From contig JBNGIO010006342.1 of NCBI GenBank assembly GCA_049999805.1, positions 467,449 through 529,940 of the forward strand: 62,492 bases of DNA. The letters run 5' to 3'. Every line of letters starts with the position of its first letter. Within the stretch, counting starts at the first letter, position 1. Source of the stretch: Folioceros fuciformis (Eukaryota). A program made the position numbers and the translations under genes. Shown one piece after another: positions 7,808 to 58,582 of the stretch. Below the pieces are notes generated by a model. That model was not told the origin of the DNA and did not search any database. It saw only the letters and a list, made by a program, of their open reading frames with translations.

Positions 7808-7910
7808 GTACTTCATAATGTTTGGTAGAAATGTTGTGCTACTAAACATTGTTGCAGACAGGTACTCCAAGGTTGTGAACTGGGCCTAAGACCCATCAGA
7901 GTGCTTGCAG

Positions 7911-8171
7911 TGTTAGAAATCAAGCTCTAACTGAATTGTTATTAAGAGCATACAACACTTAGGATAGTGTAGCTTATCCCATATTGAACTCGTAGTTATC
8001 TATCACTTAAATATTATCAAGATATATCAGGATATACTAGGATATTGCACCCCCGAGACTAAGGCTTACCTTATCGAGGGTTGCCCTGCTTGAAGGCTAT
8101 ATATGTAGCATCCTATGCACCATAAGTAAGGCACTGTGGAGTCCTTTTAAGACTGTGGTGCTATTTCAACA
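7911..8171 (+). repeat. 5' LTR of copia-1
   Basis: Direct repeat of 12603-12863, about 11 differences in 261 bp by manual count. Confidence 0.97.
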
Positions 8172-8315
8172 TGGTATCAGAGCGAGAGAGAGAGTGCCGG
8201 TGCCACCGGTGTTTAGGGTTTAGGGTTTAGGGTGCTAAACCCGCTACAGGCGCAAGAGCGCGCGAGAGGCGCGAGAGGGAGAGAGACTCAGGAGGAGCGT
8301 AAAGAAGCCTAAATC

Positions 8316-11300
8316 ATGGCTAATGTGCAGGGATCAGACAATATCTCTCAGGTCGTGGGAGAGAAGTTGAATAACAAGAATTTTGCTTTATGGAAGTTCA
8401 GGATGAAGAACTTCTTAGTAGGTAGAGGCTATTGGGACCTCTGCACAGGTGATGAGAGTGAACCAGAGATGGATCGTACTCCATCACAAGAGCAAAAGAC
8501 TGCTCACAACCATTGGACTGAGAGAGCATGTAAAGTGTTACCCTGGCTCTCCTTAAGCATTTCAGATACTATGGTCATGCAGATCACAGGATGTGAGTCT
8601 CCGAAGGATGCATGGGACATACTCATGAGGAACTATGGAAATGTCACACATGCTAGGAAAATCCAGTTGAAGCAGCAATTCAACAACTTGTCACGAGGTA
8701 GCAGATCCATACTTGTGTACACAACAGAGGTGAAGACCATAGCTGATCAGCTTGCTACAATCAGTGCAAGTGTGATAGAAGATGACATGGTTGCAGTTAC
8801 TCTGAACGAACTTGGCAAGGAGTACAAGTCCTTTGACACATCAATCTCTGTGAGAGTTGAGTTCCCAAGTTGGGATGAATTGGTTGCTTTATTGCTGCAT
8901 GAGGAAGTTAAGCTTGGTCTGAACACAGGTTCAGGTATATCTCAAGGGAGAGACATTGTTTTGTTTTCTAACCAGCGTAGGAGAAGCCACAGAGGTCGTG
9001 GTTCATTACGAGGACGGGGTGATGCTCAGAATACGCAAAATCAGCAAGGCAATTGGCGTGGAGGAAATGCGCAAGGCCAGAGAGAATCTGGAAGTTTTAG
9101 AGGCGTAGGTAGAGCCACAAGAGGAAGAGATGGTTCTTTTCAATCTCATGACCATTCCAATAGAGACAAGGAGTGTTACTACTGTGGTAAGGTTGGTCAT
9201 ATTGCTAAGGACTGCTATAAGCAACAAGCAGACATGAGAGGAAAAGGAAGGCAGCATGGGAACTATGCCTCCTCTAGTAATGCTAGAAATGACTAGGATA
9301 GGTTGTTTGCCATGCAACATCTCTCGAAACAAGATGGGCAGAATGATGAGAGATGGTACATTGATTCAGGAGCATCAAACCACATGACTCCGCATGGCGA
9401 GTGGTTTAACAAGATGGATGCAGGTTTCCATGGTTATGTGTGTACAGGAGATGACACACAACATGACATAAAGCACAGAGGAATTGTTCCTCTTAGGATG
9501 CCGAATGGTCAGCAGAAGAGTCTGCAAGATGTGTTGCATGTTCCAACCATTACGAAGAACCTGTTGTCTGTTGGGTAGATGGCTGAACAAAATCTGCAAG
9601 TTCAATTCAATAAAGATGGATGCTTTACTGAAGAATATGACAGAGGGCGCAAACTGATTGCTAAAGGTAGTAGGAATGGACGGATGTTCACTCTGGATGC
9701 ATCCATTCCAGAGCTAAATGCAGCAATGTTTGCAAATGATGCAGGTGCCATACGTGATGTTGAAATATAGCATAAGAGGATTGGGCATGTGAACATAGCG
9801 AAGCTGAAATCTATGCAACAGAAAAGCGTGGTGAAAGGATTGCCCAAGTTCAACTATGCTGATCTTGGTCATGTGTGTTCTGCATGTCAATTTGGAAAAC
9901 AGTCAAGGTTTCCATTTGTGCGACACGTGCAGAACAGCTCGAGACCTTTGCAATTGATACACTCTGATGTATGGGGTCCTGCACAAAATGCATCGTTTGG
10001 AGGAGCCCACTACTCTGTCTCCTTCATTGATGATTTCAGCAGGTACACGTGGCTGTACGTACTGAAGCATAAGGATGAAGTGTTCGAATCTTTCAAGGAC
10101 TTCAAAAAGCATGCTGAAAATGAATTCAGCTGCTCCATCTCTTGTCTAAGATTAGATGGAGGGGGAGAATACGTCTCAAATGAGTTTGAGAGGTATCTTG
10201 CAGATCATGGTATACGAAGACAGCTGACTTGCAGATACACACCACTGCAGAATGGTGTTGCAAAGAGGAAGAACAGGGTAGTCATGGAAACAGCAAGGGC
10301 AATGCTGAATGAGAAGTGCTTACCTAATGATTATTGGGCAGAAGCAGTGATGACAGCAGTGTATGTACTGAATCGAACTCCTACGGCAAGAATTCATGAT
10401 GCTACACCAATTGAGAGACTGTATGGCTATAAGCCGGATATTAGGCACTTGAAAGTGTTTGGGTGCATTGCATATGTGCATGTACCTGATGAGAAGCGTA
10501 CGAAGCTGGATCCTAAAGCAGTGAAGAGTGTTTTTCTAGGGTATGCACAAAATAGGAAGGCATATAAGTGTTATGTGCCATCCACACATGAGATCCTGAT
10601 AAGCAGGGATGTGGTATTTGATGAGTTAGCCTCCTGGTATAGCAACTCATTTGCACTACCCTATGACGAATCCACAGTGGAGAGTACTGTTAAGAGTACT
10701 CCAGCAAAGAGTGAGGATGTGACCAATGGTGGACCACCAACGGTGAATCCATAGTCTGGAAGACTACAGAATGGTAAACCGAAGACCATTGACTCGGATA
10801 TGTCAGTGAGGGGGAGAGTAGAAAGTAGCAAAACTGGAAATGAGGGATATGAATCCTCAAGTAGTGAGAGCATTAACAGTGAGTTTGGCATTCCGTCTGT
10901 GGAAACGCCAGGTGCTAAGGAGCAACAATATGCAAGGCAGGTTCAAAATGAACCAAGACCCAGGAGATCTGAGAGGGTTAGGAAACCCATTGACAGGTAC
11001 ACCTATACAAGCTACAATGCGCAACATTATGCGTATATGACAAGGGTCACAGCTTGTAAGGAGCCAACCAAGCTTGCTGAGGCAGTGACAGATGATAAGT
11101 GGTGTCAAGCCATGGATGAAGAATACTCAGCATTAGTTGAGAACGGAACGTGGGATTTGGTTCAATTGCCTGATGGCAAGGTTCCTATTGGTTCTAAGTG
11201 GATGTACAAGCTGAAGTTCAAGTCAGATGGAACGCTGGAGCGTTACAAGGCCAAGTTGGTTGCAAAGGGATATGCACAACAATATGGTCTTGATTATGAG

Positions 11301-12589
11301 GAAACCTTTAGTCCAGTAGCCAAGATGACAACTGTAAGGACAGTCATAGCATTAGCAGCAGCTAAAGGATGGAAATTATGACAAATGGATGTCAAGAATG
11401 CCTTCTTGAATGGTGAGTTGCAGGAGGAAGTGTACGTGGAACAGCCTGAAGGCTATGTTCATCCTAAGTTTCCAACATACGTCTGCAAACTGAAGAAGGC
11501 ATTGTATGAACTCAAACAGGCACCTAGAGCATGGAATGCTCGTATCACAAGCTATTTGAAGGAGCGAGGGTTTGTGATTGGAGACGCAGATCACAGTTTG
11601 TTTGTAAAACAGACCAAGGTAGGACAAGTGTGTCTTGTCGTTTATGTTGACGACCTGATCATCACAGGAGATGATGCAGATGGTATTGCAGATGTCAAGG
11701 CGAATCTGCAAAAGAGTTCAAGGTGAAGGATCTTGGTGAACTCAGATACTTCTTATGAATTGAGGTTGTGTCTACACCTCAAGGAATCTGGCTATTCCAA
11801 AAACAATATGCTAAGGATATGTTGCAGAAGTATGGCATGGCAGATTGCAAAGTGATGGATACACCATTGGGGCAGAACGTCAAGCTGCAAATGGATGTAG
11901 GAGCTGAGCTAGAAAATGTGACTATGTATCGACAGATGGTCGGAAGTTTGATCTACTTGACTATCACATGTCCTGACTTAAGTTATGCAGTGGGACTGAT
12001 TAGTCAATTCATGCAGAACCCAAGGAAACCGCACTTGGATGCAGGTAGAAGAATCATGAGATGTGTGAAAGGAACTACTGAGTTTGGATTGCTCTATGAG
12101 CATAGGAAGCATCTTGAACTGACAGGATATACAGATGCTGATTGGGCTGGTTGCGCGTATGACAGAAGATCAACCAGTGGATATGCATTCAGTCTGGGAA
12201 GTAGTATGATCAGCTGGCAAAGCAAGAAACAACCGACAGTTGCTTTGTCAAGCACAGAAGCAGAGTATCGAGGAGCTGCAATGGCAGCCTGTGAAGCAGC
12301 TTGGTTGCAGAAGTTGCTACATGATCTTGGAAATATAGTGAACAGCAAGGTTACAATCTGCTGTGACAACATGAGTAGCATGAAGTTAGCTACTAATCCT
12401 TTGTTTCATGCTCGTTCGAAGCACATAGAAGTACATTATCACTTCATTAGGGAAGCGGTATTATCTGAGAAGATAGATCTTCGGCACGTGAAGACCGAAG
12501 ACCAGGTAGCAGATATCTTTACTAAGTCCCTAGGTAAAGATAAGTTCTTACACTTTCGTGAACTACTTGGAGTGTTACAAATAGTCTGA
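8316..12589 (+). pseudogene. copia-1 gag-pol polyprotein with premature stops and a frameshift
   Basis: Zinc knuckle CYYCGKVGHIAKDC; protease WYIDSGAS; integrase [43 protein letters not shown]; RNase H YTDADWAG, SSTEAEY. In-frame stops at ~9294, 9576, 9768, 10752 and 11379; frameshift ~11710. Confidence 0.95.
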
Positions 12590-12602
12590 GCTTGAGGGGG
12601 AG

Positions 12603-12863
12603 TGTTAGAAATCAAGCTCTAACTGAATTGTTATTAAGAGCATACAACACTTAGGATAGTGTAGCTTATCCCATATTGAACTCGTAGTTATCTATCACCT
12701 AAGTGTTATCAGGATATATCAGGATATACTAGAATATTGCACCCCCGAGGCTAAGGCTTACCTTATCGAGGGTTGCCCCGCCTGAAGGCTATATATGTAG
12801 CATCCTGTGCACCATAAGTAAGGCACGGTGGAGTCCTTCTAAGACTGTGGTGCTATTTCAACA
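12603..12863 (+). repeat. 3' LTR of copia-1
   Basis: Follows the PPT; direct repeat of 7911-8171. Confidence 0.97.
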
Positions 12864-13091
12864 TGCAAGAGCTAAGTAGTCGAGCGGAGACACTTCAGAG
12901 GGTACTACTGATGGTCATGGAGAACTTGGCTATAGCCCAACACAGGGATCAACTAAGGTATGCTTTTACAAGGGGCGGCTCTAGGAGGCATAAGGCCAAA
13001 AAATTTGAGCAAGGAGACTTCGTATTCGTGTAGCACAAGCCAGCGAACACGCTGGAGGTGAATGTTGGTAGGCTGATCTGCGAGTACTAAA

Positions 13092-13373
13092 TAATGAAAT
13101 ATGACCTATTTAGGGTAGTCTTCACTACGTCACCTACGACTACTAATTAATTTAGTTCTTAGGGTTTTAAGTAGTTTATTGAGTAGTTAGTTATTAAAAC
13201 CACTTAGAGGTTAGAACTACTTATGGTTACAACCATCTTATGGTGATAACCACCTAGCCTGTGTAAAGGTTTTGTACTTTCTATTATAATCAATGCATAC
13301 AACTCTTTTGTGCAAAGCTTTCTACTATCTCCTTGCTATGTTTTGCGACTTAGAGCAGTTATGATTCTCATCA
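13092..13373 (+). repeat. 5' LTR of copia-2
   Basis: Direct repeat of 19168-19449, about 25 differences in 282 bp by manual count. Confidence 0.95.
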
Positions 13374-13573
13374 TGGTATCGGAGCATTGTTGCTCTCTAT
13401 TTGCATTGGGCAACTTAACACGCTAATCTACTCTTCTTCTTCATCTTCTCCTTCATTCTTTTTAGAAGATGTATAGATTCTTTAGATTGCATGTCATAGA
13501 TTGTTGTCATGTTTGCAGGTTCCTTAATCTTCAATAATGCACACCCAATGCATCCAATCCTTGGTTCAACGCA

Positions 13574-14110
13574 ATGGATTCCTTCAATCCTCGCAAGCAA
13601 GGCTATTGGAAGAAGATCAAGGCTGCAAGACAAGAGATAGAATATAGGAATGCAAAGATTAGAATTGCTAGGAAGTCTAGTCAAATAGAAGGAGATTCCA
13701 TACTTATTGCTAACTTCATTGGCTCTATTCTAATCAAAGTAGAAGATCAAGGGAGGCAGATAGAAATTGCTAGAAGAAACTTGCTTACTATCTTTAGTTT
13801 AAGTCAAGTGAAAGCAATAGAACTCGCTCTTGATCATATCCCAAATCTACGAGCAGGTCCTCTTTCTTCTATCTCCAATGCAAGTTCACAACAACGCAAG
13901 CAAGAAATCTTCAGTTCCATAAAGACTCTCACCAGAGAACCACGTCATCGACACACCCTACGTAGAACAAGCATAGAGGAGTTAGCAAGAGAAGAGCGTG
14001 ATCTTAATAAGCACCTCCTTCAGCATACTGATCCACACATGCTGAGCTGTCTTCATCACAAACTTTCCCTTACTGCTACTCGTCATCCTCACAAATACTC
14101 CTGTAAATAA
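13574..14110 (+). CDS. Uncharacterised 178-aa ORF in the copia-2 leader, upstream of gag
   Basis: ATG-initiated open frame between the PBS and gag; no recognised motif. Confidence 0.35.
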   Translation: MDSFNPRKQGYWKKIKAARQEIEYRNAKIRIARKSSQIEGDSILIANFIGSILIKVEDQGRQIEIARRNLLTIFSLSQVKAIELALDHIPNLRAGPLSSISNASSQQRKQEIFSSIKTLTREPRHRHTLRRTSIEELAREERDLNKHLLQHTDPHMLSCLHHKLSLTATRHPHKYSCK

Positions 14111-14216
14111 AAGGTTTCTTCTTCCCTTGATCCTTGCGCCCAGTATTTCCTGCATGATGATGAGGAAATGCGAAGGCGCTTTGCAGCTCTCTAGGCTGCA
14201 ATAGTGACCACTTGCA

Positions 14217-17200
14217 ATGGTTGGTTTTTACTTGGACGAACGAGAAGAGAAACAACAACATGAAGACAGAAGAGAGAGAGAGAAGAGGAAGGATCCACCC
14301 AAAGATGAAGCACTACCTTCCGTGGTGAATCGCAACTATGGGGATAGTTTTAAGGAGAAGGACATATTCAATGGGCAGGCGTACGACGTTTGGCGCTTGC
14401 AAATGCATGCATTCGAGATCTATGGGACGTTGTAAGTGGGTCCACACCCAAACCACAGTGGGGCTCCGAGAGCAAAGAAACCTGGGACTTCAGGGATGAA
14501 AAAGCTCAAGACCTCTTGATCAGTGGACTAGCACAGAACATGGTAAGACAATGTAGTCAAATGAAAACTTCTAAACAGATGTGGGATCACCTTGCTCAGT
14601 TATATTCTTCAAGAGATGTGATGAGTATGTTGACCACGATGCTCAACCTCTTCAATATGAAGATGAAGGAATCTGACTCCGTTGAACACCATATCAACAC
14701 TTTCCAGCAAGCTAGATCTCAATATGAAGCTGCCACCAACACCTCCATCTCTGAACTTATTGCATTCCTTGTTCTCTTGATATCCCTCCCACCCTCCTAC
14801 ACACCATTTCTCACCACATAGAACGCTGTGGTTAGACAAGCCCAAAAGAATTCGGGCGGCTTCGATGCAGACGAAGACCTCGACATCAGTGTCGCAGAAC
14901 TCATCGGAGCCATGATTCAGGAGGAGTCCAGTCGACGCCATGGGCCCAAGTCCAGCCGACAGCATGTGATGTACACTAGAAGAGGCAGAGGAAGAGGACG
15001 CGGCAAAAGTTTCACTTCCCACAAACTTGCTTATTCCACACAAGACAAATCTCATGGCGACTCCAGCTCTTCTACACCTTCTAGGAGTAACAAAAAGAGT
15101 GGAATTATTTGTAATTGGTGCAAAATTCCTAGTCACATGGAAAAGGACTGTAGAAAGAAGAAGAATGGGGAACCTAGATCAAAGGCCTCGCCTGCAGCTC
15201 ATGTTGCTTCAAAGAGACACTCTTCATCAACAACACATGTGCTCACTATTTGCCTTGCATCCTCTAAGCTGGCCAACGCTTATTGGTACCTGGACAGTGG
15301 AGCAACATCACATATCTACTACAACAAAGACTCCTTTGAGTCATACACCCTAGCCATAGAACATCAAACTGTTCTTCTGGGTGATAATCACAACCTTCCC
15401 ATCGTGGGTCTCGGTTCTGTTGTACTCAATTGTGACTCATGTCAGACTCTTCATCTTCACCACGTCCTCCATGTCCCTGCAATGTGTAAAAACCTAGTGT
15501 CAACCGCTAGTCTTTGCCACCAACACCACATGCAGGTCCTTTTATATGCAGATAGTTGTTTCCTTTCCTACCTCAAGAATAGAACACACAATATCTGCAC
15601 TGGTATCTTAGAAGATGGTCTCTACATATTGTCAGTTAAATTAGGAGCCACACATTTTGTCAATGTAGCCTCCCAACATTTTGCAATACCAACACACACA
15701 ATGCTCTCGCATTGTAGATTAGGTCATCCTAACAGACAAAAGTTAATACAAATGTCTAGAGCCAATCTGTATAGAACACCTTGTCTCTCCAAGGTTCACA
15801 ACTTAGACTGATGCAAATCATGTGTCATCACAAAACGTCACTAAGAACCTTTCAAACATACATCTCCACAAAGGGCCAAGTCACCTTTACAGATAGTACA
15901 CACAGACATTTGCGGACCCCTCTCTACACCCTCCTTTAGCGGTAGTAGATACTTCTTGACTTTCACTAACAACTATTCCCGTTTCTGCCTCTCCTACATC
16001 CTCACCAAAAAGAGTGAAACTTATTAGTTTTTCAAGGATTACATGGCATGGGCATAAAGGCTTACAGATCACAAACTCAAGACCTTACATTCCGACAATG
16101 GTGGAGAGTTTACATCTCATAGATTTGCTGAATTTTGTCGAGCTGAAGGCGTAGCTCAACAACTAAGTGTAGTATACACTTCTCAGCAAAATGGTGTAGC
16201 AGAAAATAAGAATCTCTGCCTCCAAGAGATCATAGGTTGCTTGTTAACACTAGCTAACTTATCCAAAGCTTATTGGGCTGAGGCCCTCCTTACAACAACC
16301 TATCTCATGAATCGCATGTTGCCTTCATCAATTCAAGTTATGACTCCATAAGAAGCATTCACCGGCAACAAGCCTTCCATCGATCACCTTCGAATTTTTG
16401 GTTCTCTCGCATATGTCTTTATCCCTAAAGTACAACGCAATAAGTTAGATCCAAAAGCTGCCAAATATATATTCATTGGCTACACCGAAGGCATCAAAGA
16501 TTACAAGCTATTTGAAACCACCACATGGAAGCTTACATATGCTAGGAGTGTTACTTTTCATGAGTCTTACCTATTTTCCCTAGCAGTGGGAGCTGGTACA
16601 TCCGGCCTTGAGGACATCTCTTCCGAAGAGCCCTCAGATACCTCCTCATTTGATGATAATGACTATATCACTCAATTTCTAGTTCCTACTTTACGTGTTC
16701 CCCTAGTTGAACCTATTATGCAAGAGGAGGAGGAGTTAGCATCCATTCCACATGATACACCGCCTGATGATGACAACATTCTAGCTGAGGAGCCAGTAGA
16801 CACTCTTGATGCAGAGCATGATGACCCTCTAGTGATTGACATGGAGCATCCCGATCCTACCGATTATCCTACTCACATGGAAGATGCACCTGAACCTACG
16901 CCAACGTACAACTTAAGAACCCATCCTGCAATCTCCGGACCCACAGGATGGAAAGAACCTCCTCTAGGATATCTAGCTGTATTTGATGACGCTATTCACC
17001 CTACATCACTGTACTCAGAAGCAGTATACAAGGCAGCAGTGGATCCTGCAGAACCTCTCTCCCTCAAACAAGCTTTCTCATCTTTTGAAAAAGACTTATG
17101 GAAGGTTGCTGTACATTTCGAATACAACTCCCTAGTTAGCAACTCAACTTGCGAATTAGTCAAGCCACCCAAGAGTAGAAAAATCATAACCAACACGTGG

Positions 17201-18410
17201 GTATTCAAAATAAAAAGAAAAGGGGATGGTTCCATTGAGAGATACAAAGCACGCCTTGTGGCCAAGGGATTCACCCAGATACCAGGTTTAGATTACCTCC
17301 CATGGGCCACATTCGCTCCAGTAGCAAAGTTTGCTTCCCTTAGAATGATCTTCGCCTTAACAGCTCAGCATGATCTTGAGCTTCATATGATGGATGTGAA
17401 GACAACCTATCTCTATGGTCGTCTTCAAGAAGAAATCTACATGAAACAGCTCGAAGGTTATGAGGTTCAAGGCAAGGAAGATTGGGTATGCAGACTCATT
17501 AAAGGCCTGTATGGTCTCAAGCAATCTGGTAAAAATTGGAATATGGGCATACATGTGAAACTCATCAAAAGAGGCTTCCGGCAAAGTGATGCCGATGCAT
17601 GCATGTATATCCTAATATCAGGCAATGATATCTTTTACCTATTGCTCTACGTCGACGACGTGTTCATGGCGACAAACTCCCTTACTCTCCTAGCCGAGAT
17701 CAAAAGCTGGCTCAAGACTTTTAATGAAATGTCTGATTTAGGAGAAATGACATATGCACTTGGTGTTAACATTATTAGAGATCGAGCAAAAAAGACTCTA
17801 AGTATTGTTCAAACCAAGTACATCAAAGAGAGTTTATCCAAGTTTGGACTTGAAGATGCGAAACTTGCCCCTACACCTTTTGCTAGGGGGGTTAGGCTTA
17901 CCTTAGATATGAGTCCAAAGACAACACAAGACAAGTTGGAAATGTCAGCAATCCCATATTGACATGCTGTTGGCACACTTATCTATTTATCCAACCTCAC
18001 TAGACCACGCATATCTTTTGAAGTCAGCTCCTATTCACAATTCCTGGAGAATCCTGGACGTGAACACTCGATGTCAACTAAGCGCATATTCAGATACCTC
18101 AAGGGTACCATGCACACAAGATTGACATTCAAATATACACTAGGCATAAAGACATTGACATTAAGAGCGTACGCTGACATCGATTGTGCTGGTGACCCCG
18201 ACACACGCAGATCCGTATTAGGTTACGTACTGCTATTGGGGGGAGCACCAATATCCTGGTCAAGTAAGAAACAACCAACCATAGCCTTGTCCAGCACTGA
18301 GTCAGAGTATAGAGTACTAACCTCAGTTGTTAAAGACATAGTATGGACTAGGCTAACCTTGAATGAACTTCATCACTTGCAGGGACAACCTCTACCTCTT
18401 CACATGTGAC
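14217..18410 (+). pseudogene. copia-2 gag-pol, multiply disrupted, RNase H truncated
   Basis: gag FNGQAYDVWRLQM and LWDVVSG; zinc knuckle CNWCKIPSHMEKDC; protease WYLDSGAT; GAG-pre-integrase HCRLGH; integrase HTDICGP, HSDNGGEF; RT RYKARLVAKGF, YVDD; RNase H YADIDCAG, SSTESEY. Confidence 0.93.
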
Positions 18411-19167
18411 TTCAACCTCGACACGAGTGCCAGACCACTTCCTACCACCAGGAAATCGTGGTGGGCTCTCCACAGAGGTTGGAATCCATCTAGAGGCAGG
18501 TAGAGGATCACCAGGGTACTGCCCAGGAGGGGCGTTCTGCTCCTCAGAGGGGCACGGTCCCCTCCCCAGGGGCCGCACTCCCTCTCTTTTCTTCTTTCCA
18601 CTGCAGGCTAGCCGGCATCCATCTCCCTATAGCATCGGCACCAAGTGACCACAGGCCAATTTGGACACACGAGAAGTAGCGTGCCGGAGGCGCGACCCTG
18701 CCAATAGCCGCGCGTCCCTACAACGGGCACGCATGCCCCTTGCCGCACCGGATCTGCGAGCCATGGCTGGAAGGAGCGTGTTTTGCTTCAAGCGGGGGAG
18801 CGCGACAGGAGCGGGAAGCGAAGAGGAGGAATCAAACCGTATGGGAATGCCCATTAACAATATGACCCCCCCAGGGCATACAAACGGGCATCACATGGCC
18901 CAGGCCGTTACCCATTTAATGGTTTTCATTTTCACCTTTTTCAAGTTTTACTTTTACCTTTTTATATTGTTTAGAAATTTACCATTTCCTTCTTGAGTTT
19001 TCTAGTAATACATTTTGATTACATTAAATTTTGTTTTAAAGTAACTTAATACAGTTTTTAATTCTTTTCTTAGTTAGTGGATAGCTTTCAAGTTAGTGGG
19101 AGCTAACTAACATTTTTAGGCTTATTTTGAAGCTAATTCTTCACACCTAGTTCATAGTGAGTGGGAG

Positions 19168-19449
19168 TGATGAAATATGACCTATTTAGGGCACTCTTCA
19201 CTAGGCACCTAAGACTATTAATTAATTTAGTTCTTAGGGCTTTAGGTAGTTTATTGAGGAGTTAGTTGTTACAACCACTTAGAGGTTAGAACTACTTATG
19301 GTTACAACCACCTTTATGGTTCTAACCACCTAGCCTATGTAAAGGCTTTGTACTTTCTATTATAATCGATGCATACAACTCTTTTGCGCAAAGCTTTCTA
19401 CTATGTGCTTGCTATGTTTTGCTACCTAGAGCAGCTATGATTCTCATCA
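19168..19449 (+). repeat. 3' LTR of copia-2
   Basis: TG...CA termini; direct repeat of 13092-13373. Confidence 0.95.
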
Positions 19450-20470
19450 GTAAACGTAGGAGACCAAGGAGTGGCTGAATTAGAGGGTCAGGATGGGCAA
19501 CGGTGCAAAGAGCATATAAAGCATTTGGCTCCTTATCACCTACCCAATCTTGATACCAGGATCCAACCACAAGGTTGGAAGCCGCTTGCTGATTTGCCTT
19601 GCGAACAATGTGAAAGGATTGAAGACGAAGACAACATGCTGTTGTGTGACAAGTGCAACCAAGGATTCTACATGTGTTGTCTATAGATACCCTAGAAAGA
19701 TATGCCCGAAAGAGACTAGATCTGCTCGCTGTGCAGTAAAAGCAAAACCACAGCCAGTGTCATGATAGGGAGCACATGATAACCAAATGACAAACAAACA
19801 CTAGGTTTAGTTAGGGGTTAGTGTGCATGTCTAGAAACGTCATTAACGAATAATAAATCTTAGGGCGAACAAACACGTCCATGACAGCACAAGAAAATAA
19901 TCGGGGTGTTAAAGGCTAATGAGTCAAAGGAAGAGAGTCTTCCAAACCATGACAAGGAGCAACGAGATCAAGGCGTGATGGTGTGGGCGGCTCACCTGAA
20001 GGCGGGGCAAGGTCGGAAACAAAACTTAGAGGCAGTAGCACATGAAGGTGGGATGGGCTGCCATGAGCGCTGTAGGTTGAGAGGTCTTTGAGTTGTGATG
20101 GTATGATGCTGTTATAATTGTCGAGGTGAGGACAGTGAGTGTTGACGATGCCTGAAATAGGACATCCGCTGGCCTAATTGAAGCGTTGTTGTGTGGAGAA
20201 AGGCCGCAAGGGGTTGACAAGCAGTCAGCCAATCGAGGAGGAACATGGGGGACAGGAGTTGTCTTCACCGACAAGTTAGACCCAAAAATGAAGACCTAGA
20301 AATCCTACCACACAACAGTGCTCACAAGGGGTGCTGCCTGTGTTGCGGACAAATAAACCCACCCAAATCACGCTATGTTCACAAGCCCCAATTTTTAGAA
20401 AACGAAGACATTGAAAAAAGGACACAGGAGTTTGTTAGGAAGTATTGCCCCGACAAACCCCTGGTGCCCA

Positions 20471-21039
20471 ACTGAGATGTCCATCACAATCTTCCATTCA
20501 GGATGCATGCACATCGCTGCAGGAGAAAGCACCATTGCACCACTATACAACGTGTTTGAGCAGCTGCATCCCATCATGATGGCACACCGAATGAAGAGGA
20601 GGGTGCTAGCAAACCCCGGCGCGCCTCGGAGGGTGTGATTGTGAGCAGTCAGGGCCCCGCGCAAGAGAAAGCGGTTGTAGGCTAGGGGCACTAAGGTAGT
20701 TACGACCGACGCAGCCTGCCAATGTCATCCTGCCGATTGTGATAGAGCATGCATGGCCCACGCCGGCCTTGCATTTTGATCCGTTTGGTCGGCCACGCAA
20801 TTGGTGGTTGGACGGAGTTATGAGTAGTAAACAAAAGAAGGAAGAAGATTTTATGGAAGCAACGAAACATTCGTCACACTTGGGAACCCTGCAACGCCGA
20901 GGGTTAGGGCCTAGGGGGAAAGCCGGGAAAAAGGGGTTGCGTGCGGGAGGAGCAGTGCCATTCGCTGAACACGGTTGTCCTTGGGTCACGATGCATGTGA
21001 TATTTATCACGTACGACACGTAGATTTATCGAGATACAA
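20471..21039 (+). pseudogene. 5'-truncated tandem copy of the 3' end and 3' flank of the TBP-like gene
   Basis: Highly similar to 21955-22530; encodes [36 protein letters not shown]... with TGA at 20636-20638 where the full copy has CGA. Confidence 0.9.
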
Positions 21040-21089
21040 GTTCTAGCCTACTCGCAAAGCACTTGCCAAAGGCCAAGGATGAGTGGTCC

Positions 21090-21100
21090 TATATATATAT
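21090..21100 (+). promoter_or_regulatory. Candidate TATA box for the TBP-like gene
   Basis: TATATATATAT ~190 bp upstream of the ATG at 21289, embedded in GC-richer DNA. Confidence 0.35.
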
Positions 21101-21288
21101 GTGTTGGCGTGCGGTGTATGCACATAGAGCTAGTAGTTGCTGTCGTGGGCCGGTACTAACGTGCTCCTACGGACGAAATCCAAAGGACGTCCCTGCGCGC
21201 ACCTGGAATAGCTTCCGCATGTGCCAGCGCTCCAACGAAAGGACGACGCCGTGCGGCACTTGGGATCGCTCCCGCGCGCGCGTGCGTC

Positions 21289-22164
21289 ATGTCGGGCTCG
21301 GCCGACGTGGAGATGCATGACTCGTGCGACATGGCCACCACAACTGAGACGAGCCACACGAGGACCATGGTGCGGTACGTGTATAAAGACACGCCCACGG
21401 GATTAGCATTGGTCGACGCTGACGAGGATGCATGTGCACTTCGAACAGAGCATCCATCGGGGGTGATACCCAAGCTAGTCAACGTGGTGGCAAGCACCAC
21501 GCTTCACGTGCGATTCAACTTGACTCACTTGGGTCTCCACCTTCCCAACGTGGAATACCATCCTGAGCAAAACGATGGAGGCATGGCAACGGTGACGGTG
21601 CGACTCAGTGGGTCCTCGAGGCCTTACTTGACGCTGCGCGTGTTCAGGACAGGGCGCGTGATCGTACTAGGACTAGCATCGCGTGAGCAGCAAAATGGTG
21701 CTTGCGAGAAGCTAGTTGCGATGGTGAAGAGGCTGGGGTACAAAGCACACTTTGATCCCAATGACCTCAAGGTCACCGATATTGTGGTGCATGTAGCAGT
21801 GCATGAAGACAACGCGGATGCGGACGCAATTGACTTGGTAGGGCTTCACGCAACCCTAGTTGACGGCTTGAGCCAGCTCAAGTTGAAACGAGTGCGCTTA
21901 GACCCACCGGCATTGAGAGGGTCCAGTGGGTTGATAGCTATGTTCGAGGGCATCACCGAGATGTTCGTCACAATCTTCCATTTGGGATGCATGCACATCG
22001 CTGCTGGAGAAAGCACCATTGCACCACTATACAACGTGTTTGAGCAGCTGCATCCCATCATGAAGGCACACCGAATGAAGAGGAGGGCGCTAGCAAACCC
22101 CGGCGCGCCTCGGAGGGTGCGATCGCGAGCAGTCAGGGCCCCGCGCAAGAGAAAGCGGTCGTAG
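21289..22164 (+). CDS. Divergent intronless TATA-binding protein (TBP)-like protein, 291 aa
   Basis: [41 protein letters not shown] matches plant TBP [55 protein letters not shown] ~ [23 protein letters not shown] ~ [22 protein letters not shown] ~ TYTAFENIYPVL; basic NLS-like tail PRKRKRS. Confidence 0.85.
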   Translation: [291 protein letters not shown]

Positions 22165-23237
22165 GCTAGGGGCACTGAGTTAGTTACGACTGACGCGGCC
22201 TGCCAATGTAATCATGCCGATTGTGATAGAGCATGCATGGCCCACGTCGGCCTCACATTTTGATCCATTTGGTCGGCCGCACAATTGGTGGTTGTACGGA
22301 GTTATGAGTAGTAAACAAGAGAAGGAAGAAGATTTCATGGAAGCAACGAAACGTTCGTCACACTCGGGAACCCTGCAGCGCCAAGGGTTAGGCCTAAGGG
22401 AAAAGCCGGGAAAAAAGGGTTGCGCTCGGGAGGAGCGGTGCCATTCGCTGAACACGGTTGCCCTTGGGTCATGATGTATTTGATATTCATCATGTACGAC
22501 ACGTAGATTTATTGATTTATCGAGATACAAACTCTTTCTAGTGTTGAGTTAGGTCCCTTCCACACACTAATGTTGTTTTAGTGATTGCATGAAGTAAACC
22601 TTTATTAGGCTCTAAGTTAAGTCTTAGTATTGTCATGCATGCCTTTCTTAGAAGTAAGTTAATTATTACCACACTTATATCATGCTTATTATCTAGGTTA
22701 CATGCCTTTCTTAAGCTCTAAGTTAAGTCTTAGAACTCATGCTTGCTCCTTGTGCTCGACATGCATATTACAGAAAGATTAAAAAGATTAAAACGTGCAA
22801 ACCTCCTTTAAGTAGGTGATACATACGTTGTTAGTACGCAGACGTAGCGATTCTGTCAAGGGGTGGATTGTTTAAGCGCGGAAGTTCAAACGAACAAAGG
22901 GCCGTTGGAGCCTGGTTTTGGCGCACAAAACAGGTGCATGCAATATTATTAGGAAGCCAGCAAATGTGATCCCCCTTTCCCGACGAGTCCTGAACCCTAA
23001 ACCCGTAACTTGCTTTTCCTGAGCAGCGGTCCACGTGCGCGTTGCGTGCTCTGAAAGTTGCACCTAAAGCTTAGGTTATGGTGGGAAGCGATGATATGGG
23101 GAACAATCCCAGCATGTGCCAGGGGTGGGGTAGCGTTGGCGAGGTCAGATCCAGCTAGTGAGTAGCCTGTGTCGTCCGAGAAGCGGGAAAACTGTGAGAC
23201 TTGACCGGTTTGTGGGAGGAGCTGGCGGTGAGCAGAT

Positions 23238-26200
23238 ATGCAGGGCCCGGATGCTGGGGTGCTGTCGCAATGGTTTCTGCAGACGCTGTCTCCAGATTTG
23301 GAGCCAAGAAAACAGGCAGAAGAGCACCTGAAGCTGGCGGGGGAGCGGCCGGATTTCGGGCGTGTCCTGCTGCAGCTCTTGTCTGAGCGTGCCGTTGGGG
23401 AACAAGTTCGGCTGGCTGCTGCCGTGAACTTCAAGAACAGGGTGAAGTACAGATGGCGCGCGGAGGATGCGGAGAGTGCTCAGGTGTTGCCCATGGGGGA
23501 GGAGGAGAAGGAGCAAGTGAAGCTGTGTATTGTCGGCCTCATGTGCTCTATGCCTCCCAAGATACAGTCTCAGTTGAGCGAAGCTCTTGTGATCATGAGC
23601 AAGTTCGACTTTCCGCACAACTGGCCGTATTTGCTCGATCAGCTTGTGGCCGGAATTCAGAACCGCGCAGACTATAGTGTGATCAATGGTATTCTGCAGT
23701 CTGCGAATTCGATTTTCAAGCGGTTTAGGTACGAGTTTAAAAGCCAGGAGCTGTACCGTAACCTCAAGTATTGTCTTGATGGATTTGCTGCCCCGTTGCT
23801 AGAGCTGTTCACCGCCACTGGGATCTTGATTGATTCCAATCCAGAGTCGCCAGCTGTTCTGAAGCCTCTGTTGGAGTGCCAGCGGCTTTGTTGCCGTATC
23901 TTCTATTCTTTGAATTTTCAGGAACTTCCAGAGTTTTTTGAGAATCATATGGCAGAGTGGATGGCAGGGTTTCACAAGTATTTGATCTATACCAACCCAC
24001 TATTGAAGGAGAGCGATGAGACTAAGGAGAGCATCGTGGATCAAGTGAAAGTGGCGATTTGTGAGAACATCAATCTGTACATGGAGAAGAACGAAGAGGA
24101 GTTTCAGAGCTTCCTTACAGAATTTGCCACGGATGTCTGGAACCTTTTGATGACTGTGTCCCAAGCTCCGAGCCACGATCGCCTTGCTACCACTGCCATT
24201 AAGTTTCTGACTACGGTCAGCAAAAGTGTCCACCATGCGCTCTTCAGAAGTCCATCCACGCTGAAGCAAATCTGTGAAAGCATCATCATTCCGAATCTGA
24301 AAATTCGAGAAGAAGATGAGGAGCTCTTTGAGATGAATCACATCGAGTACATCAGAAGAGACATGGAGGGTAGTGATTTGGAAACCAGGAGGAGGATGGC
24401 GTGTGAGCTTATCAAGGGCCTTTCCACACAATATCAAGAACAGGCATGCCTCTCTCCCGCCTTCCCCTGATGTCCAGTGTGCAAGTGGTTCTCTAACGGT
24501 GATTTGTTTGTCTTTGAAGGTCACGAGGATGTTTTCTGCTTATACCCAGGAAATGTTGGCAGAATATGCTCTCAATCCGAGATTAAACTGGAAAGCGAAA
24601 AACTGCGCTGTTTATCTTGTGGTCTCCCTGGCATCCCGGCAGGCTTCCGAAGGAGTAGCAGCCTCTGATCTTGTGGATGTGGAGCAGTTTTTTACGACGC
24701 AAATTGTGCCTGAGCTGCGAACCTATGAACCTGATGTACAGGCAATTCTCAAAGCCGATGCCTTGAAGTTTTTGACAACTTTTAGGAGACAAATACCGAA
24801 GGGTATGATGCTGGAGTTACTGCCTCAGGTCATGGGGTTTCTATTGGCTGAATCCAATGTTGTTCATTCATATGCTGCTAGCTGCATTGAGAAATTACTG
24901 GTGCTCAAAGATGGGAGAGCACTTCGATACCTAGCTGGAGACCTGGCTCCATTTGTGCAGCCTTTGTTGACAAATCTTTTTGGTGCCCTGAAGCTACCTG
25001 AGTCTCAGGAGAACGCTTATGTCATGAAGTGCATCATGAGAGTGCTTTCTGTTACAGACGTTGGGGACATGGGAAAAATTGTCATGGAAGAGCTGACTCG
25101 CATTCTTGCTGAAGTGTGCAAGAATCCTACAAATCCCAGCTTCAATCACTATGTCTTTGAGGCCATAGCTGCCCTTGTTAGAAGGGGTTGTGCAGTCAAT
25201 CCTGAGCTTATCAAGGAGTTCGAGAAGCTGCTGTTTCCCGTTTTTGAGAACATCTTGCAGCTAGACGTCGTTGAATTTGCCCCATATGTCTTCCAGGTCC
25301 TTGCGCAGCTTCTAGAAACCAGACAGCCTCCACTTCCACTTGAGTACACCAGTATTTTCCCTGTGTTTCTCAACCCAACTCTCTGGAAGCGGCCAGCTAA
25401 TGTTCCAGCATTGGTCAGGCTCTTACAGGCCTATCTTCAGAAGGCACCTGAACAGATCAATCAGGGACAGGTGAGTCTCTTGCCTTGAAAGTCTTTCCTC
25501 TTGTCAGTTAGATTGTGCACAAGAACCTAATGAGCGCATTCCGTCCATGTCTCAGCTGCCACAAGTGCTGGGAGTCTTTGACATGCTTATAAAGTCAAGA
25601 AACAACGAGCACGAAGGGTTCTTCATACTCCACACTATTGTGGAAAATCTTCCATACCGGTTGATTGAGGGATATCTTCCGGAAATATTCAGTATTCTGT
25701 TTTTCAAGCTTCATAGCCATCGGACCTTGAGGTTCATCAAGTCATTGATCATCTTCATGTCTCTGTTTGTCGTAAAGCATGGGCATGCAAGATTGACGGA
25801 AACAGTGGATAAAGTGCAATCCAATATGTTTTCCATGGTCCTGGAAAGCATTTGGATATCAAATTTGACTGCCATTGCAGGGGAGCTTGAGACTAAACTT
25901 TGTGCAGTGGCAGCGACAATGTTGTTGTCTGAGTCACCTGTCCTACTACGAGATACTGGAGTCTCCACTTGGACCAAATTGCTCGACAATGTAGTAACTC
26001 TTCTAACCCGACCAGAGGATCAGGGAGTCGAAGAAGAACCAGAGATCCCAGACTTGGATGAGGTTGTGGGCCACATGGCTGTATTTGCGCGGTTGTACAA
26101 TGCGGGAAAGCAGGAAGATGACCCAGTGAAGGAGATTCAGGATGCCCGGGAGTTTCTGGTGACGTCTCTTAGCCGAACTGGTATACAGCAGCCCGGGACG

Positions 26201-26290
26201 CTGCCGTTTAGGATACAGCAAGGTCTAGATCCCAAGAGCCAGGCAGCACTTCACCAGTTTTGCACCACATTCGGGGTCAGCTTTGTTTAA
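23238..26290 (+). CDS. CSE1: Exportin-2 / CAS / CSE1 (importin-alpha re-exporter); exons 23238-24443, 24520-25470, 25556-26290
   Basis: Importin-beta N-terminal domain ([11 protein letters not shown]), [79 protein letters not shown]; introns 24444-24519 (GC-AG) and 25471-25555 (GT-AG). Confidence 0.96.
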
Positions 26291-46496: not shown

Positions 46497-46838
46497 CTGC
46501 CAAAGTCCCTGCTGAAGTTCTTGCTACACAAAGCTTAAATCCTGAGGGAGGAGGAAACCCGGGCGGGAACCTCGAGTTCGAACTTGCTGGGACGCATGCC
46601 GGATGACGCGAGGCACATGAAGCGTTTATGAGGGGCTCATCCCCTGTCCGCCATATCCCCGATAAATCGCAAGCTTGCACACTTGGCAAGTGGCCTACGA
46701 GATGATGAGATACGACGGCGGCTAGCGTCTTGCCGCGGCCCAACCTCTGAGCTCACAGCCTTCAAATGGCAGGGCCCCCTGCAGACAAAGACAAATGTTG
46801 TCTACACGGGGAGAGGCCTGGGACTGAAGAGCGTGCGC

Positions 46839-58069: not shown

Positions 58070-58582
58070 GGCGGTGGGGAGTGGCGAGCGGCAGCAGCAG
58101 GCCTCGCTCCCGAGCTTTTCCTCCCGCCCAGAGCGCAAAATCGGTTGGAGCAGGGGCTGCAGCCCACGAGCGCGATTTAGAGCAGAGCAGGCGGCGGCAG
58201 CGGGGGCGGGAGCGGGAGTGGGAGCGGGAGCAGGAACTGGAACATGGGCAGGCTCATCTGACGCGCGCCTTGAGCTGGAGAAGCAGCCACGGCAATGGCT
58301 ATATCCGGTGCGTGGAGCCTGCAGCATCTGCGGACTCTGCAGTGGGCTCTGGGGCGTCGGGCGTGCGCATCAGGAACAAGGCCGCATTGGGCGTCGCTGG
58401 ATTCAAGAGCTCCGGGGAGAGGGGGCCCGGGAACGGGCCAAGTTGAGGTGGGCCTCGGGAAGGGCACCCTGCCGCTGGGTCCTGGACTGGGCTGGGTTGC
58501 CTGGGCTGGTCTGGCCTGGCCCGGCCTGGCCTCCGCGGCCTGGCAACAGGCTTGCGGCAGAGACAAAAAGAGAGCTGGGCCA

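Follow-up and report, generated by a model that had tools for sequence, protein, structure and literature searches.

Few eukaryotic proteins are as strongly conserved as TBP. For Arabidopsis thaliana, the TBP isoforms were described as near-identical, about 10% apart from each other, and Glu144 and Glu146 of TBP2 were described as the glutamate pair of the C-terminal stirrup that contacts TFIIB (PMC10005294). In animals, the TBP-related factors TRF1, TRF2/TLF and TRF3 are presented as inventions of this lineage acting in promoter switching in the germline and in development (PMC3142196; PMC4180970). TLF was reported to be ~40% identical to TBP (PMC3142196), and TLF/TRF2 is described as evolving faster than TBP and as a factor without TATA binding (PMC3142196; PMC4180970). 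In the account given in PMC4180970, the alteration of three specific phenylalanines is the signature of TRF2, TRF2 is reported from bilaterians only, and the sites for TFIIA and TFIIB are described as conserved in TBP-related factors. The same account describes that outside of TRF2 the TATA-interacting phenylalanines were replaced independently in Trypanosoma brucei TRF4 and Crypthecodinium cohnii TLF, and in each of these two organisms no other member of the TBP family is reported (PMC4180970). In the literature that was searched for plants, no report of a TRF-like or of an amplified divergent TBP was found.

Within contig JBNGIO010006342.1 of Folioceros fuciformis, a TBP-like gene is present in the window, i.e., the whole stretch of 62,492 nucleotides that was analyzed (Table 1). 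An earlier note on this DNA had described an intact ORF of 291 amino acids, and the frame is exactly as described, opened by an ATG and closed by a TAG after 291 codons, with the N-terminal tail, both repeats and the C-terminal tail in a single ORF and no introns in the coding region. The note had also proposed to check this ORF with HMMER against the Pfam TBP family and with AlphaFold/Foldseek for the saddle fold, and both checks returned TBP. The Pfam family PF00352 is matched with 55.7 bits (cut-off 22.9; E 4.6e-15) by residues 61–148, a match confined to the first repeat, and phmmer finds 35 TBP sequences of the PDB at E<=1 (best 6.3e-15). The second half of the protein alone is without a Pfam or PDB match, and in hhalign against a profile of 29 TBPs it reaches an E-value of 0.0023 and a probability of 12% with the register being correct. 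Aligned to the 29-TBP profile, with the query excluded from it, the full-length protein reaches a probability of 99.5% and an E-value of 4.2e-22 over query residues 51–281, collinear across both TBP repeats as had been read by eye; a single-stretch alignment across both repeats is found for 9 of the 150 listed library matches. The Pfam and hhalign E-values exclude a chance likeness to TBP. The 291-aa ORF is a genuine two-repeat member of the TBP-fold family, and the earlier description as an intronless, very divergent TBP-family gene stands.

Moreover, AlphaFold2 run with a 53-row alignment results in a model with two S-H-S-S-S-S-H repeats (pLDDT 79.4, pTM 0.69), which depends on an alignment made up of TBPs; from the single sequence the model is unusable (pLDDT 36.4). 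A Foldseek search of the PDB with the former model found 45 structures at E<=1e-3; those listed were almost exclusively TBPs, with Arabidopsis TBP 1vok_B as the best match (E 2.7e-13) and with target TM values of 0.77–0.81 at 25–28% identity for the PDB TBPs. The divergent protein is predicted to retain the TBP saddle fold, i.e., the same two-repeat fold as in canonical A. thaliana TBP (1VOK, 1QN3, 1VOL).

Table 1. Positions of the TBP-like gene, its protein regions and the surrounding repeat in the window.
Feature	Position	Strand	Basis
TBP-like protein gene, ORF of 291 aa and stop codon, intact and without introns	21289..22164	+	ORF, Pfam, hhalign, predicted fold
N-terminal tail, residues 1–53, acidic, low confidence, stops just ahead of HPSG	21289..21447	+	pLDDT, pI
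TBP repeat 1, residues 54–153, basic	21448..21747	+	Pfam, alignment, pI
TBP repeat 2, residues 154–262, degenerate and acidic, loop insertions	21748..22074	+	profile alignment, pI
Basic C-terminal tail, residues 263–291, NLS-like	22075..22161	+	composition
Truncated upstream copy: last ~70 codons, two premature stops, ~360 nt of 3' flank	20471..21039	+	self-comparison
Downstream direct-repeat arm: ORF 3' end and 3' flank	21955..22530	+	self-comparison
Repeat-family extent, covered by related contigs in two DNA runs	20543..22405	.	contig matches and k-mer depth
TA-repeat (TATA-like) run within the repeat unit, putative core promoter	21090..21099	+	read from sequence

The likeness to canonical TBP is distributed unequally over the protein. 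As had been noted from the letters alone, the HPSG motif ahead of the core is kept (residues 55–58), and two of the four intercalating phenylalanines are in place, Phe119 in VFRTG and Phe230 in IFHLG. At the KRF position the sequence reads EQ, a four-residue insert NDGG and then Met99 in place of the phenylalanine, and the ELF position reads PAL with Leu209. The second QNIV motif reads TDIV, turning the second central asparagine into Asp164, with Asn65 of repeat 1 being kept. The conserved threonine of repeat 2 is replaced by Ala239, and the corresponding position in repeat 1 reads leucine in the alignment as judged by eye; in TBP-DNA structures, the asparagine pair and the threonine pair are located on the concave face. 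In repeat 2 the Lys/Arg/Thr DNA contacts are replaced and the C-terminal stirrup sequence E-P-E-L is changed to D-P-P-A, so that the equivalents of Glu144/Glu146 of A. thaliana TBP2 are Asp205/Pro207. The N-terminal stirrup NVEYHP on the TFIIA side looks kept in repeat 1, yet it carries the four-residue insert. Compared with a canonical TATA-binding TBP, the protein departs in the set of four phenylalanines, in the Asn/Thr pairs and in the TFIIB-contacting stirrup glutamates. The loop insertions and the basic NLS-like tail noted earlier are present as well; this tail contains 13 Lys and Arg and no Asp or Glu (pI 12.0), and the N-terminal tail (pI 4.4) has a pLDDT below 50 at residues 13–46.

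Among the 23 alignment columns conserved at >=90%, 17 are identical in the query at an overall identity of ~26% (binomial P 2e-6), suggesting that the divergence is constrained rather than random. The six differing columns (F to M99, L to R117, V to I125, N to D164, Y to L204 and F to L209) are mostly DNA-contact or stirrup positions of TBP. For columns conserved at >=80%, 17 of 30 are identical in repeat 1 and 8 of 23 in repeat 2, and repeat 1 has an isoelectric point of 10.1 but repeat 2 one of 5.6, compared to 10.2 and 9.3 in a plant-type TBP. By its sequence, the protein is lopsided, with a nearly normal N-lobe and a degenerate, acidic C-lobe. It shares with Arabidopsis TBP the HPSG motif, Asn65, Phe119, Phe230, the Gly/Pro framework and the N-terminal stirrup NxEYxP; unlike Arabidopsis TBP, its gene is intronless, it carries Met99, Leu209 and Asp164, loop insertions, an acidic N-terminal tail and a basic C-terminal tail, its repeat 2 is acidic and the TFIIB glutamate pair is lost. 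Furthermore, the gene is a multi-copy repeat unit, whereas canonical plant TBP is a conserved one- or two-copy gene.

The gene makes up a single unit of a repeat of ~1.48 kb, and the period of the direct repeat is 1484 nt. The two arms of the direct repeat (Table 1) are 92% identical, and the truncated duplicate upstream amounts to 0.4 unit. In two DNA runs, related contigs that differ by about 7–11% from the window span the family extent, and their k-mer depth is roughly ten times as high as in the flanks. For contigs identical to the window the depth is 6.5–13.7 (runs X1 and X2), while contigs that are 7–10% different reach 111–128 in X1 and 57–72 in X2, one of the latter type spanning the unit junction 21039/21040. 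Two further runs, X4, presumably of RNA, and X6, gave no matching contigs, a result that has no bearing on expression. The ratio of the deep variant to the flanks is unequal between the runs, about 11 and about 8, contig depth does not equal copy number, and the deep variant may be episomal or organellar. Within these libraries, the main variant of the family appears to be roughly ten-fold commoner than single-copy DNA. The window copy is a dispersed member of this ~1.48 kb repeat family. This does not fit the idea of a lone, retroposed gene put forward in the earlier note: the flanks are tandem-duplication arms rather than target-site duplications, and the absence of introns is the one point for retroposition, with no poly(A) remnant or A-run being found in the 370 nt 3' of the stop codon. 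Reading the 570 nt direct repeats as an LTR element was discarded as well, the arms beginning within the TBP coding sequence; neither TG...CA ends nor a primer-binding site of the arms were seen by eye. A search for terminal inverted repeats at the borders of the unit gave none. The scan of positions 19400–23300 for Rfam families gave none, and a scan for bacterial-type promoters and terminators, a scan type not relevant to the host, gave nothing.

The reading frame is kept within the family. Seven indels were listed between the window and the family contigs. The five outside the coding frame are +1, +1, +1, −1 and +4, and the two inside it are +3 and −33; the latter is a 33-base in-frame gap at 22105–22137, by which codons 273–283 are missing from a deeper family variant. 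A further +5 duplication falls on the stop codon without abolishing the stop. The indel density of the 5' flank predicts about 12.7 indels per 876 nt, for which the Poisson probability of two or fewer is 3e-4 as a rough value. No frameshifting indel was found between the window copy and any family contig compared. Because the reading frame was kept, we infer that the repeat family was maintained as protein-coding. Our preferred explanation, to which we give about an even chance, is that of a maintained, lineage-specific family of TBP-like repeats encoding a lopsided protein, of which the window copy is a dispersed member, methylated now or in the past, with its frame still open. For this explanation we infer copy number, methylation, selection, partners and DNA binding alike.

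The substitutions of the window copy have a different character. Counted from window to contig, A>G (44) and T>C (39) exceed C>T (13) and G>A (5) in X1 (83 vs 18), and the same holds for X2 with 41 and 38 against 20 and 14 (79 vs 34), the spectrum expected from deamination of 5-methylcytosine in the lineage of the window copy. Within the 40 listed of 163 difference rows there are 36 such transitions, 21 of them at a CpG of the relatives (background 35%; P 0.003) and another 9 in CHG context. The window copy differs mostly by these CpG/CHG C-to-T changes, which suggest methylation in the present or the past; it has the look of a methylated, decaying copy and may already be silenced. Moreover, among the first 47 codons 13 changes are listed relative to the family, which hit 12 codons and alter the residue in 10 of them, and the coding core is 9–10% different from the deep contigs compared to roughly 3–7% in the flanks. 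Since coding divergence is no lower than that of the flanks, the substitutions do not point to purifying selection acting on the window copy. Of the signs of a decaying retrocopy that the earlier note had named (no expression, dN/dS near 1 and no orthologues), part applies, as no orthologue was found and 10 of the 12 changed codons alter the residue; the TBP fold, whose absence the note had named separately as speaking against its reading, is predicted.

These substitutions also speak for a dead or dying copy, i.e., a silenced, methylated and dispersed fragment that is open by chance and yields no functional protein, with only other copies or none being active. In the same direction, the adjacent truncated copy has already acquired its two stops, and the locus lies between a copia element (13131–19449) and a frameshifted, intronless CAS/Cse1 copy. 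Seven CGA and three CAG codons of the frame are at risk from such deamination, and the probability of an open frame by luck is about 0.15–0.2 by a rough estimate, so that luck would not be improbable. However, the 291-codon frame has persisted together with all fold-critical Gly, Pro and hydrophobic positions and without a frameshift relative to the family, and the unit carries its own ATG with the TATA-like run about 190 nt 5' of it. In addition, gene-body CpG methylation is compatible with expression. Taken together, we consider a dying copy to be possible but doubtful.

If the family is maintained, its rapid evolution, amplification and epigenetic targeting could be taken further, since together they might indicate a role in germline-specific transcription or in genetic conflict rather than decay. 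According to this reading, a plant lineage evolved TBP-like factors of its own, intact in the N-lobe but acidic and disabled in the C-lobe, and amplified them as units of ~1.5 kb; core-promoter factors of the TRF type, be they alternative or antagonistic, would thus be known from plants for the first time. We regard this as unlikely and put it forward tentatively. Action against transposons, or drive, would be examples of a genetic-conflict role under this reading.

Phylogeny and database searches bear on the origin of the family. A word-index protein search left 0 of 3577 word-sharing candidates at E<=0.01, and a HMMER scan of 1.84 billion protein representatives gave no match below 1e-30, the best real matches being ordinary TBPs with 31–40% identity; the lack of a close relative in this set agrees with the earlier remark that no well-characterized plant equivalent is known. 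The terminal branch of the query is 3.88, i.e., about 3.9 changes per site, compared to 0.01–0.3 for canonical plant-type TBPs, and in both trees the query is located among long-branch TBP-like rows, for which the long-branch warning of the program applies. Two of these rows are taken to be TLF/TRF2-like. The AU test rejected none of three alternative clades: p is 0.576 when the query is united with the two TLF-like rows, 0.372 when it is united with plant TBPs and 0.366 with two giant-virus TBPs.

The proteins of giant viruses were considered as a source, although we judge such an origin to be very unlikely. It would imply that a TBP of a giant virus (Nucleocytoviricota) or of a mobile element entered the plant genome, was amplified and then methylated as an invader. 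The TBP-like proteins of giant viruses are likewise very divergent and intronless with a TBP fold, and the lack of introns, the multiple copies and the methylation-type decay spectrum at this locus would be consistent with an invader. Furthermore, the three nearest clusters of the ESM Atlas by language-model features are TBP clusters consisting to 76–100% of viruses, most commonly Nucleocytoviricota, with a score of 0.94 that serves as a lead only, and with Foldseek, 66 TBP-like models from viruses are matched at E<=1e-3 (E down to 5.6e-10). However, the identity to the viral models (BFVD) is 7–17%, compared to 25–28% to cellular TBPs, and the clade with plant TBPs is likewise not rejected by the AU test. 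HPSG before the core is common to 20 of the 21 rows of the canonical plant-type cluster and is absent from the two viral TBPs, as it is from the TLF-like rows. Two scans of viral contigs led to no close locus: the protein alone gave one pattern match and no relative, and alignment A1 gave only L001 and L002, two distant giant-virus TBPs with 23–29% identity. Within the window, the neighbors are copia elements, the CAS/Cse1 copy and other host-type genes, not viral ones; no giant-virus hallmark domain was found in the 30 neighboring ORFs scanned, virus-named Pfam matches near the locus are weak and generic, and the unit lacks the bounding inverted repeats mentioned above.

Finally, a TRF2-type initiator that, together with TFIIA and TFIIB, nucleates pre-initiation complexes on promoters without a TATA box is most improbable: the predicted saddle with altered phenylalanines and the trees with their TLF-like neighbors would fit it, but the tree placement stands under the long-branch warning, the C-lobe is acidic, the TFIIB-contacting glutamates are lost whereas TBP-related factors are described as keeping such sites, and TRF2 is described for bilaterians only (PMC4180970). 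As a TBP paralogue with a saddle fold and altered intercalating phenylalanines, the protein resembles metazoan TLF/TRF2 (TBPL1), and the earlier note had suggested that it could be a TRF2-like factor. Membership in TRF2 fails because two phenylalanines (to Met and Leu) and not three are altered and the stirrup glutamates for TFIIB are lost; in addition, TLF/TRF2 is bilaterian with ~40% identity to TBP, and the present protein is from a plant with ~26%. By analogy it could still act like TLF/TRF2 as a non-TATA factor or as a sink for TFIIA. Unlike T. brucei TRF4 and C. cohnii TLF, it is an extra, amplified paralogue in a host that presumably also has a canonical TBP.

Returning to the maintained family, its fast-evolving, lineage-specific members probably act by sequestering partners or as non-TATA factors. 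If expressed, the protein would most likely enter the nucleus by means of its basic tail. With the Phe, Asn, Thr and Lys/Arg contacts of the C-lobe lost, clamping and kinking of TATA in the manner of TBP would not be expected, and with the glutamate pair lost, canonical recruitment of TFIIB would not be expected either. The protein might titrate partners of the N-lobe and of the convex surface, such as TFIIA and regulators of the NC2/Mot1/TAF1 type, or it might bind DNA loosely via the N-lobe and the tail as a non-TATA factor. Of the decoy idea in the earlier note, the part concerning TFIIA-side partners is plausible as judged from the residues, and the part concerning TFIIB is not. If these genes are expressed, they would represent an independent experiment in core-promoter diversification in plants and a natural half-functional TBP for dissecting the roles of each lobe. 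If they are silenced repeats, an essential general factor would have been duplicated, diverged by about 4 changes per site under constraint of the fold, amplified and shut down.

The rows closest to the query in the trees are two metagenomic TBP-like proteins, P0088 and P0157, which are placed as its sisters with supports of 97 and 88, a join that carries the long-branch warning. A scan of metagenome contigs with alignment A3 gave 87 pattern matches and no relative, and a scan with P0088 gave two loci, L003 and L004, that were both set aside, L004 being a phage-like bacterial contig matched in a spurious frame. A likeness of the stretch "LHA...LSQ" of P0088 to repeat 2 of the query was not retained, the fuller relative P0157 reading otherwise there, and we suspect that this stretch is a gene-model artefact. 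P0157 keeps YEPENFP in repeat 2, unlike the query. In repeat 1, both proteins are 31–35% identical to the query, have a stirrup insertion in place of the first phenylalanine and share with it the stretches LHLPNV and TLR-x-F-x-TG.

The intact ORF that the earlier note had aligned by eye to both TBP repeats is confirmed as TBP-like. At positions 21289-22164 of the forward strand 291 codons run without interruption from ATG to TAG, and the product matches the Pfam TBP family PF00352 with 55.7 bits (cut-off 22.9, E 4.6e-15), the match being confined to residues 61-148, i.e., repeat 1. In a phmmer search against all PDB chains, distinct TBP sequences matched at E<=1 numbered 35; an archaeal TBP (2z8u, 6.3e-15) ranks first, and TBPs from yeast, human and Arabidopsis come next at ~1e-12. 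Residues 149-291 alone have no match in Pfam or PDB, and residues 154-261 alone align in the correct register to a profile of 29 TBPs with E 0.0023 and a probability of 12%. The full protein aligns collinearly to this profile over residues 51-281, i.e., over both repeats, with 99.5% probability and E 4.2e-22. In the exhaustive HMMER scan, a single-stretch alignment across both repeats was found for 9 of the 150 matches listed.

Residues were mapped onto P0020, a canonical TBP from the match list which by recognition we take to be plant-type, with a numbering equal to that of A. thaliana TBP2 plus one. The HPSG, VFRTG, IFHLG and TDIV motifs described previously are all found, as is the added basic tail, the final 29 residues containing 13 Lys/Arg and no acidic residue. 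Both intercalating Phe reported as lost are indeed absent; they are substituted (Met99, Leu209) and not deleted. In A1, a 53-row TBP alignment, 23 columns are conserved in at least 90% of the 52 other rows, and the protein shares the conserved residue at 17 of them (binomial P 2e-6), at an overall identity of ~26%. The six departures are Phe to Met99, Leu to Arg117, Val to Ile125, Asn to Asp164, Tyr to Leu204 and Phe to Leu209, and judged by the map of TBP-DNA contacts these are presumably mostly DNA-contact or stirrup positions. Since the other conserved columns are kept and the losses cluster in this manner, the divergence has hit the DNA face and spared the fold, unlike random decay.

The damage is lopsided, repeat 2 being worse affected than repeat 1. 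At columns conserved in at least 80% of the rows, identity is 17/30 in repeat 1 versus 8/23 in repeat 2. Repeat 1 is still basic (pI 10.1; plant-type TBP 10.2) and repeat 2 is acidic (pI 5.6; plant-type TBP 9.3), with conserved Arg, Lys, Thr and Lys of its strands replaced by Met218, Cys234, Ala239 and Ser242. The N-terminal stirrup NVEYHP is retained save for a four-residue insert. In the C-terminal stirrup E-P-E-L has become D-P-P-A. In A. thaliana TBP2 these positions are occupied by Glu144 and Glu146, the latter being assigned the strongest TFIIB contact in a review (PMC10005294).

Without an alignment, AlphaFold2 gave a useless model (pLDDT 36.4). Supplied with the library TBPs of the 53-row alignment it reached pLDDT 79.4 and pTM 0.69, with pLDDT of at least 90 at 150 residues and a twofold strand-helix-four strands-helix pattern. 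The TBP fold expected from the first reading is thus predicted: Foldseek returned 45 PDB matches at E<=1e-3, nearly all of those listed being TBPs, with Arabidopsis TBP 1vok_B as best match (E 2.7e-13), target-normalised TM values of 0.77-0.81 and identities of 25-28%. Because TBPs made up the alignment supplied, the model shows that the sequence is compatible with the saddle and does not prove the fold independently; the profile statistics were obtained without the model.

The protein is a TBP saddle with a near-normal N-lobe (repeat 1, residues 54-153), a C-lobe (repeat 2, residues 154-262) whose DNA-contact residues, TFIIB-contact residues and positive charge have been lost, and a strongly basic tail. 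Such a protein would be unable to clamp and kink the TATA box on both sides or to grip TFIIB as canonical TBPs do. The tail would direct it to the nucleus and could add non-specific DNA affinity, and the kept N-lobe and stirrup could still engage partners on the TFIIA side, or regulators that act on the convex and concave surfaces. Given the loss of the C-lobe contacts and the kept N-lobe, a role as modulator or decoy, or as a non-TATA factor that binds loosely, seems likelier to us than that of a TRF2-style initiator. According to passages of PMC4180970, TRF2 has three altered Phe with the TFIIA and TFIIB sites kept, evolves about five times faster than TBP and occurs in bilaterians only. The protein is similar in kind; however, it lacks the TRF2 signature, and the TRF2-like role proposed before is unlikely, as two Phe are altered instead of three and the Glu positions of the TFIIB stirrup are lost. 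A passage of PMC3142196 describes that TLF can repress via sequestration of TFIIA. In the literature searched, among it PMC10005294, PMC3142196, PMC7221094 and PMC4180970, no plant TBP-related factor of such kind was met; PMC4180970 refers to plant TBP paralogues but gives no detail.

Relatives are remote. A word-index protein search gave no relative among 3577 candidates, and when 1.84 billion representatives were scanned exhaustively with HMMER, 269 proteins matched at E<=1e-3 and five at <=1e-10, whereas <=1e-30 was reached by none. The top match (P0001, 1.2e-17) is an artefactually doubled plant-type TBP and the others are ordinary or divergent TBPs with identities of 25-41%. Two trees were calculated. 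One was a FastTree in which the query and two viral ORFs were joined by 133 of 153 stored proteins, P0001 (the doubled sequence), P0151-P0153 (cluster members) and matches of less than 170 or more than 480 aa having been left out; the other was a quick IQ-TREE of 44 hand-chosen rows. In both, the query falls on the eukaryotic side with a branch that is very long (3.88 changes per site versus 0.01-0.3 for plant-type TBPs), adjoining the metagenomic TBP-like proteins P0088/P0157 and near rows which by recognition we take to be TLF/TRF2-like, with a long-branch warning on both. P0088/P0157 are very divergent and eukaryote-type, carry a ~15-residue first-stirrup insertion at the expected first intercalating Phe and retain YEPENFP in repeat 2. 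Phylogeny is uninformative on the origin of the gene, because AU tests rejected neither a clade with plant-type TBPs (p 0.372) nor one with the TLF-like rows (p 0.576) or the two viral TBPs (p 0.366).

On sequence grounds, descent from a host TBP is favoured by the higher identity to cellular TBPs and by the HPSG-type motif. This motif occurs in 42 of the 153 stored matches, among them all but one of the 21 rows that form the canonical plant-type cluster, and neither the two giant-virus TBPs nor the TLF-like rows have it. An acquisition from a giant virus is a lead suggested by the nearest ESM Atlas hits, which are giant-virus TBP clusters (score 0.94); however, searches of viral contigs found no close viral sequence, the neighbours of the gene within the window include no viral gene, and the 66 viral BFVD models matched by Foldseek at E<=1e-3 (best 5.6e-10) are only 7-17% identical, compared with 25-28% for cellular TBPs.

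The gene is a repeat unit and not a lone retrocopy. Its last ~70 codons and ~360 nt of 3' flank (21955-22530) are repeated just upstream at 20471-21039 with 92% identity and a period of 1484 nt. The upstream partial copy contains two premature stops and differs from the full copy by eight non-synonymous and two synonymous single changes. No A-run follows the stop codon, no inverted repeats bound the ~1.48 kb unit and no Rfam family was found within 19400-23300.

Contigs from two DNA sequencing runs (X1, X2) of one sample were compared with 20300-22700. Window-identical contigs have k-mer depths of 10-13.7 (X1) and 6.5-8.8 (X2), and contigs ~7-10% different from the window reach 111.7, 127.7 and 111.2 (X1) and 63, 72.2 and 56.7 (X2), a depth which is not copy number and whose ratio to the window-identical contigs differs between the runs. 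One deep contig spans the unit junction 21039/21040, and further contigs, of single-copy depth, show 9-11% difference from the window. Most simply, these data would reflect one near-homogeneous variant present ~8-12 times, perhaps as a tandem array, together with a few diverged dispersed copies, the window copy being one of these. Alternatively, the deep variant may be episomal or organellar, as its unequal depth ratio in X1 and X2 could indicate. It lacks 11 basic-tail codons (residues 273-283; 22105-22137) and has one additional codon after residue 191 (21861), so that the main family protein would be ~281 aa if otherwise open.

The best evidence that the family was kept as coding sequence is the indel pattern. 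Seven indels are listed between the window and the family contigs, and the two inside the coding frame (a 3-base insertion and a 33-base gap at the codons mentioned) are both in frame; elsewhere non-coding changes of +1, +1, +1, -1 and +4 occur, plus a +5 duplication at the stop codon. The 5' flank density (4 in 276 nt) predicts ~12.7 indels over the 876 coding bases, giving a rough Poisson P(<=2) of ~3e-4. The substitutions are strongly asymmetric: from window to relative, A>G and T>C number 44 and 39 versus 13 C>T and 5 G>A in X1, and 41 and 38 versus 20 and 14 in X2. Among 40 listed of the 163 difference rows, 36 are such transitions, 21 of them at CpG in the relatives (P 0.003 against a background of 35%); of the remaining 15, nine are in CHG context (P 0.04). 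This asymmetry and context point to a probable footprint of 5-methylcytosine deamination in the lineage of the window copy. Moreover, the 13 listed changes in the first 47 codons affect 12 codons and alter the residue in 10, and between the coding core and the deep contigs the divergence is 9-10%, no lower than in the flanks, which suggests that the window copy is decaying. With seven CGA and three CAG as deamination-prone codons, the rough probability that the frame stayed open by luck is 0.15-0.2, which is not improbable. The picture, as far as sequence tells, is of a TBP-family paralogue whose C-lobe is disabled and whose gene has been amplified in units of ~1.5 kb. It is an unusual protein and its family looks selected, and the window copy, which bears marks of a silenced repeat, may itself not be.

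Motifs of the TBP-like protein (residue numbers) and features of the window (nucleotide positions)
Feature	Position	Strand	Remarks
HPSG motif	residues 55-58		
VFRTG	Phe119		retained
IFHLG	Phe230		retained
KRF position	Met99		EQ, then four-residue insert NDGG, then Met99
ELF position	Leu209		PAL
Second QNIV	Asp164		TDIV
Copia-type LTR element 1	7909-12865		LTRs 7909-8173 / 12601-12865, 96% identical
Copia-type LTR element 2	13131-19449		LTRs 13131-13373 / 19206-19449, 92-93% identical
TA-repeat run	21090-21099		~190 nt upstream of ATG
CAS/Cse1 exportin copy	23232-26290	+	IBN_N, Cse1 and CAS_CSE1 domains; ~1 kb downstream of TBP-like gene
AAA_11/AAA_12 helicase	34369-36982	-	adjoins 276-aa ORF 33305-34135
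PIF/Harbinger-type DDE transposase ORF	44829-46523	-	564 aa
Short-chain dehydrogenase (adh_short)	46632-47974	+	domain spans two frames
Plant U-box/ARM E3 ligase gene	56780-58369	-	529 aa, intact, intronless

The surroundings of the gene are plant-like and repeat-rich. The two copia-type retrotransposons lie back to back, with gag, integrase and RVT_2 ORFs spread across the pair, and directly after the second LTR a short Cys-rich, PHD-finger-like fragment was seen by eye at 19620-19700 (+). The CAS/Cse1 copy looks like a processed pseudogene, its complete coding sequence leaving no room for introns and lying in three overlapping shifted frames (two frameshifts). The dehydrogenase could be an intronless copy with a frameshift or else a gene whose intron is very short, and the transposase and the U-box/ARM gene lie in a stretch of 60-68% GC. 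Finally, a tandem array of at least 12 copies of a 24-nt unit (33458-33841) lies inside the 276-aa ORF on the minus strand, which weakly matches a cornifin-like proline-rich repeat.
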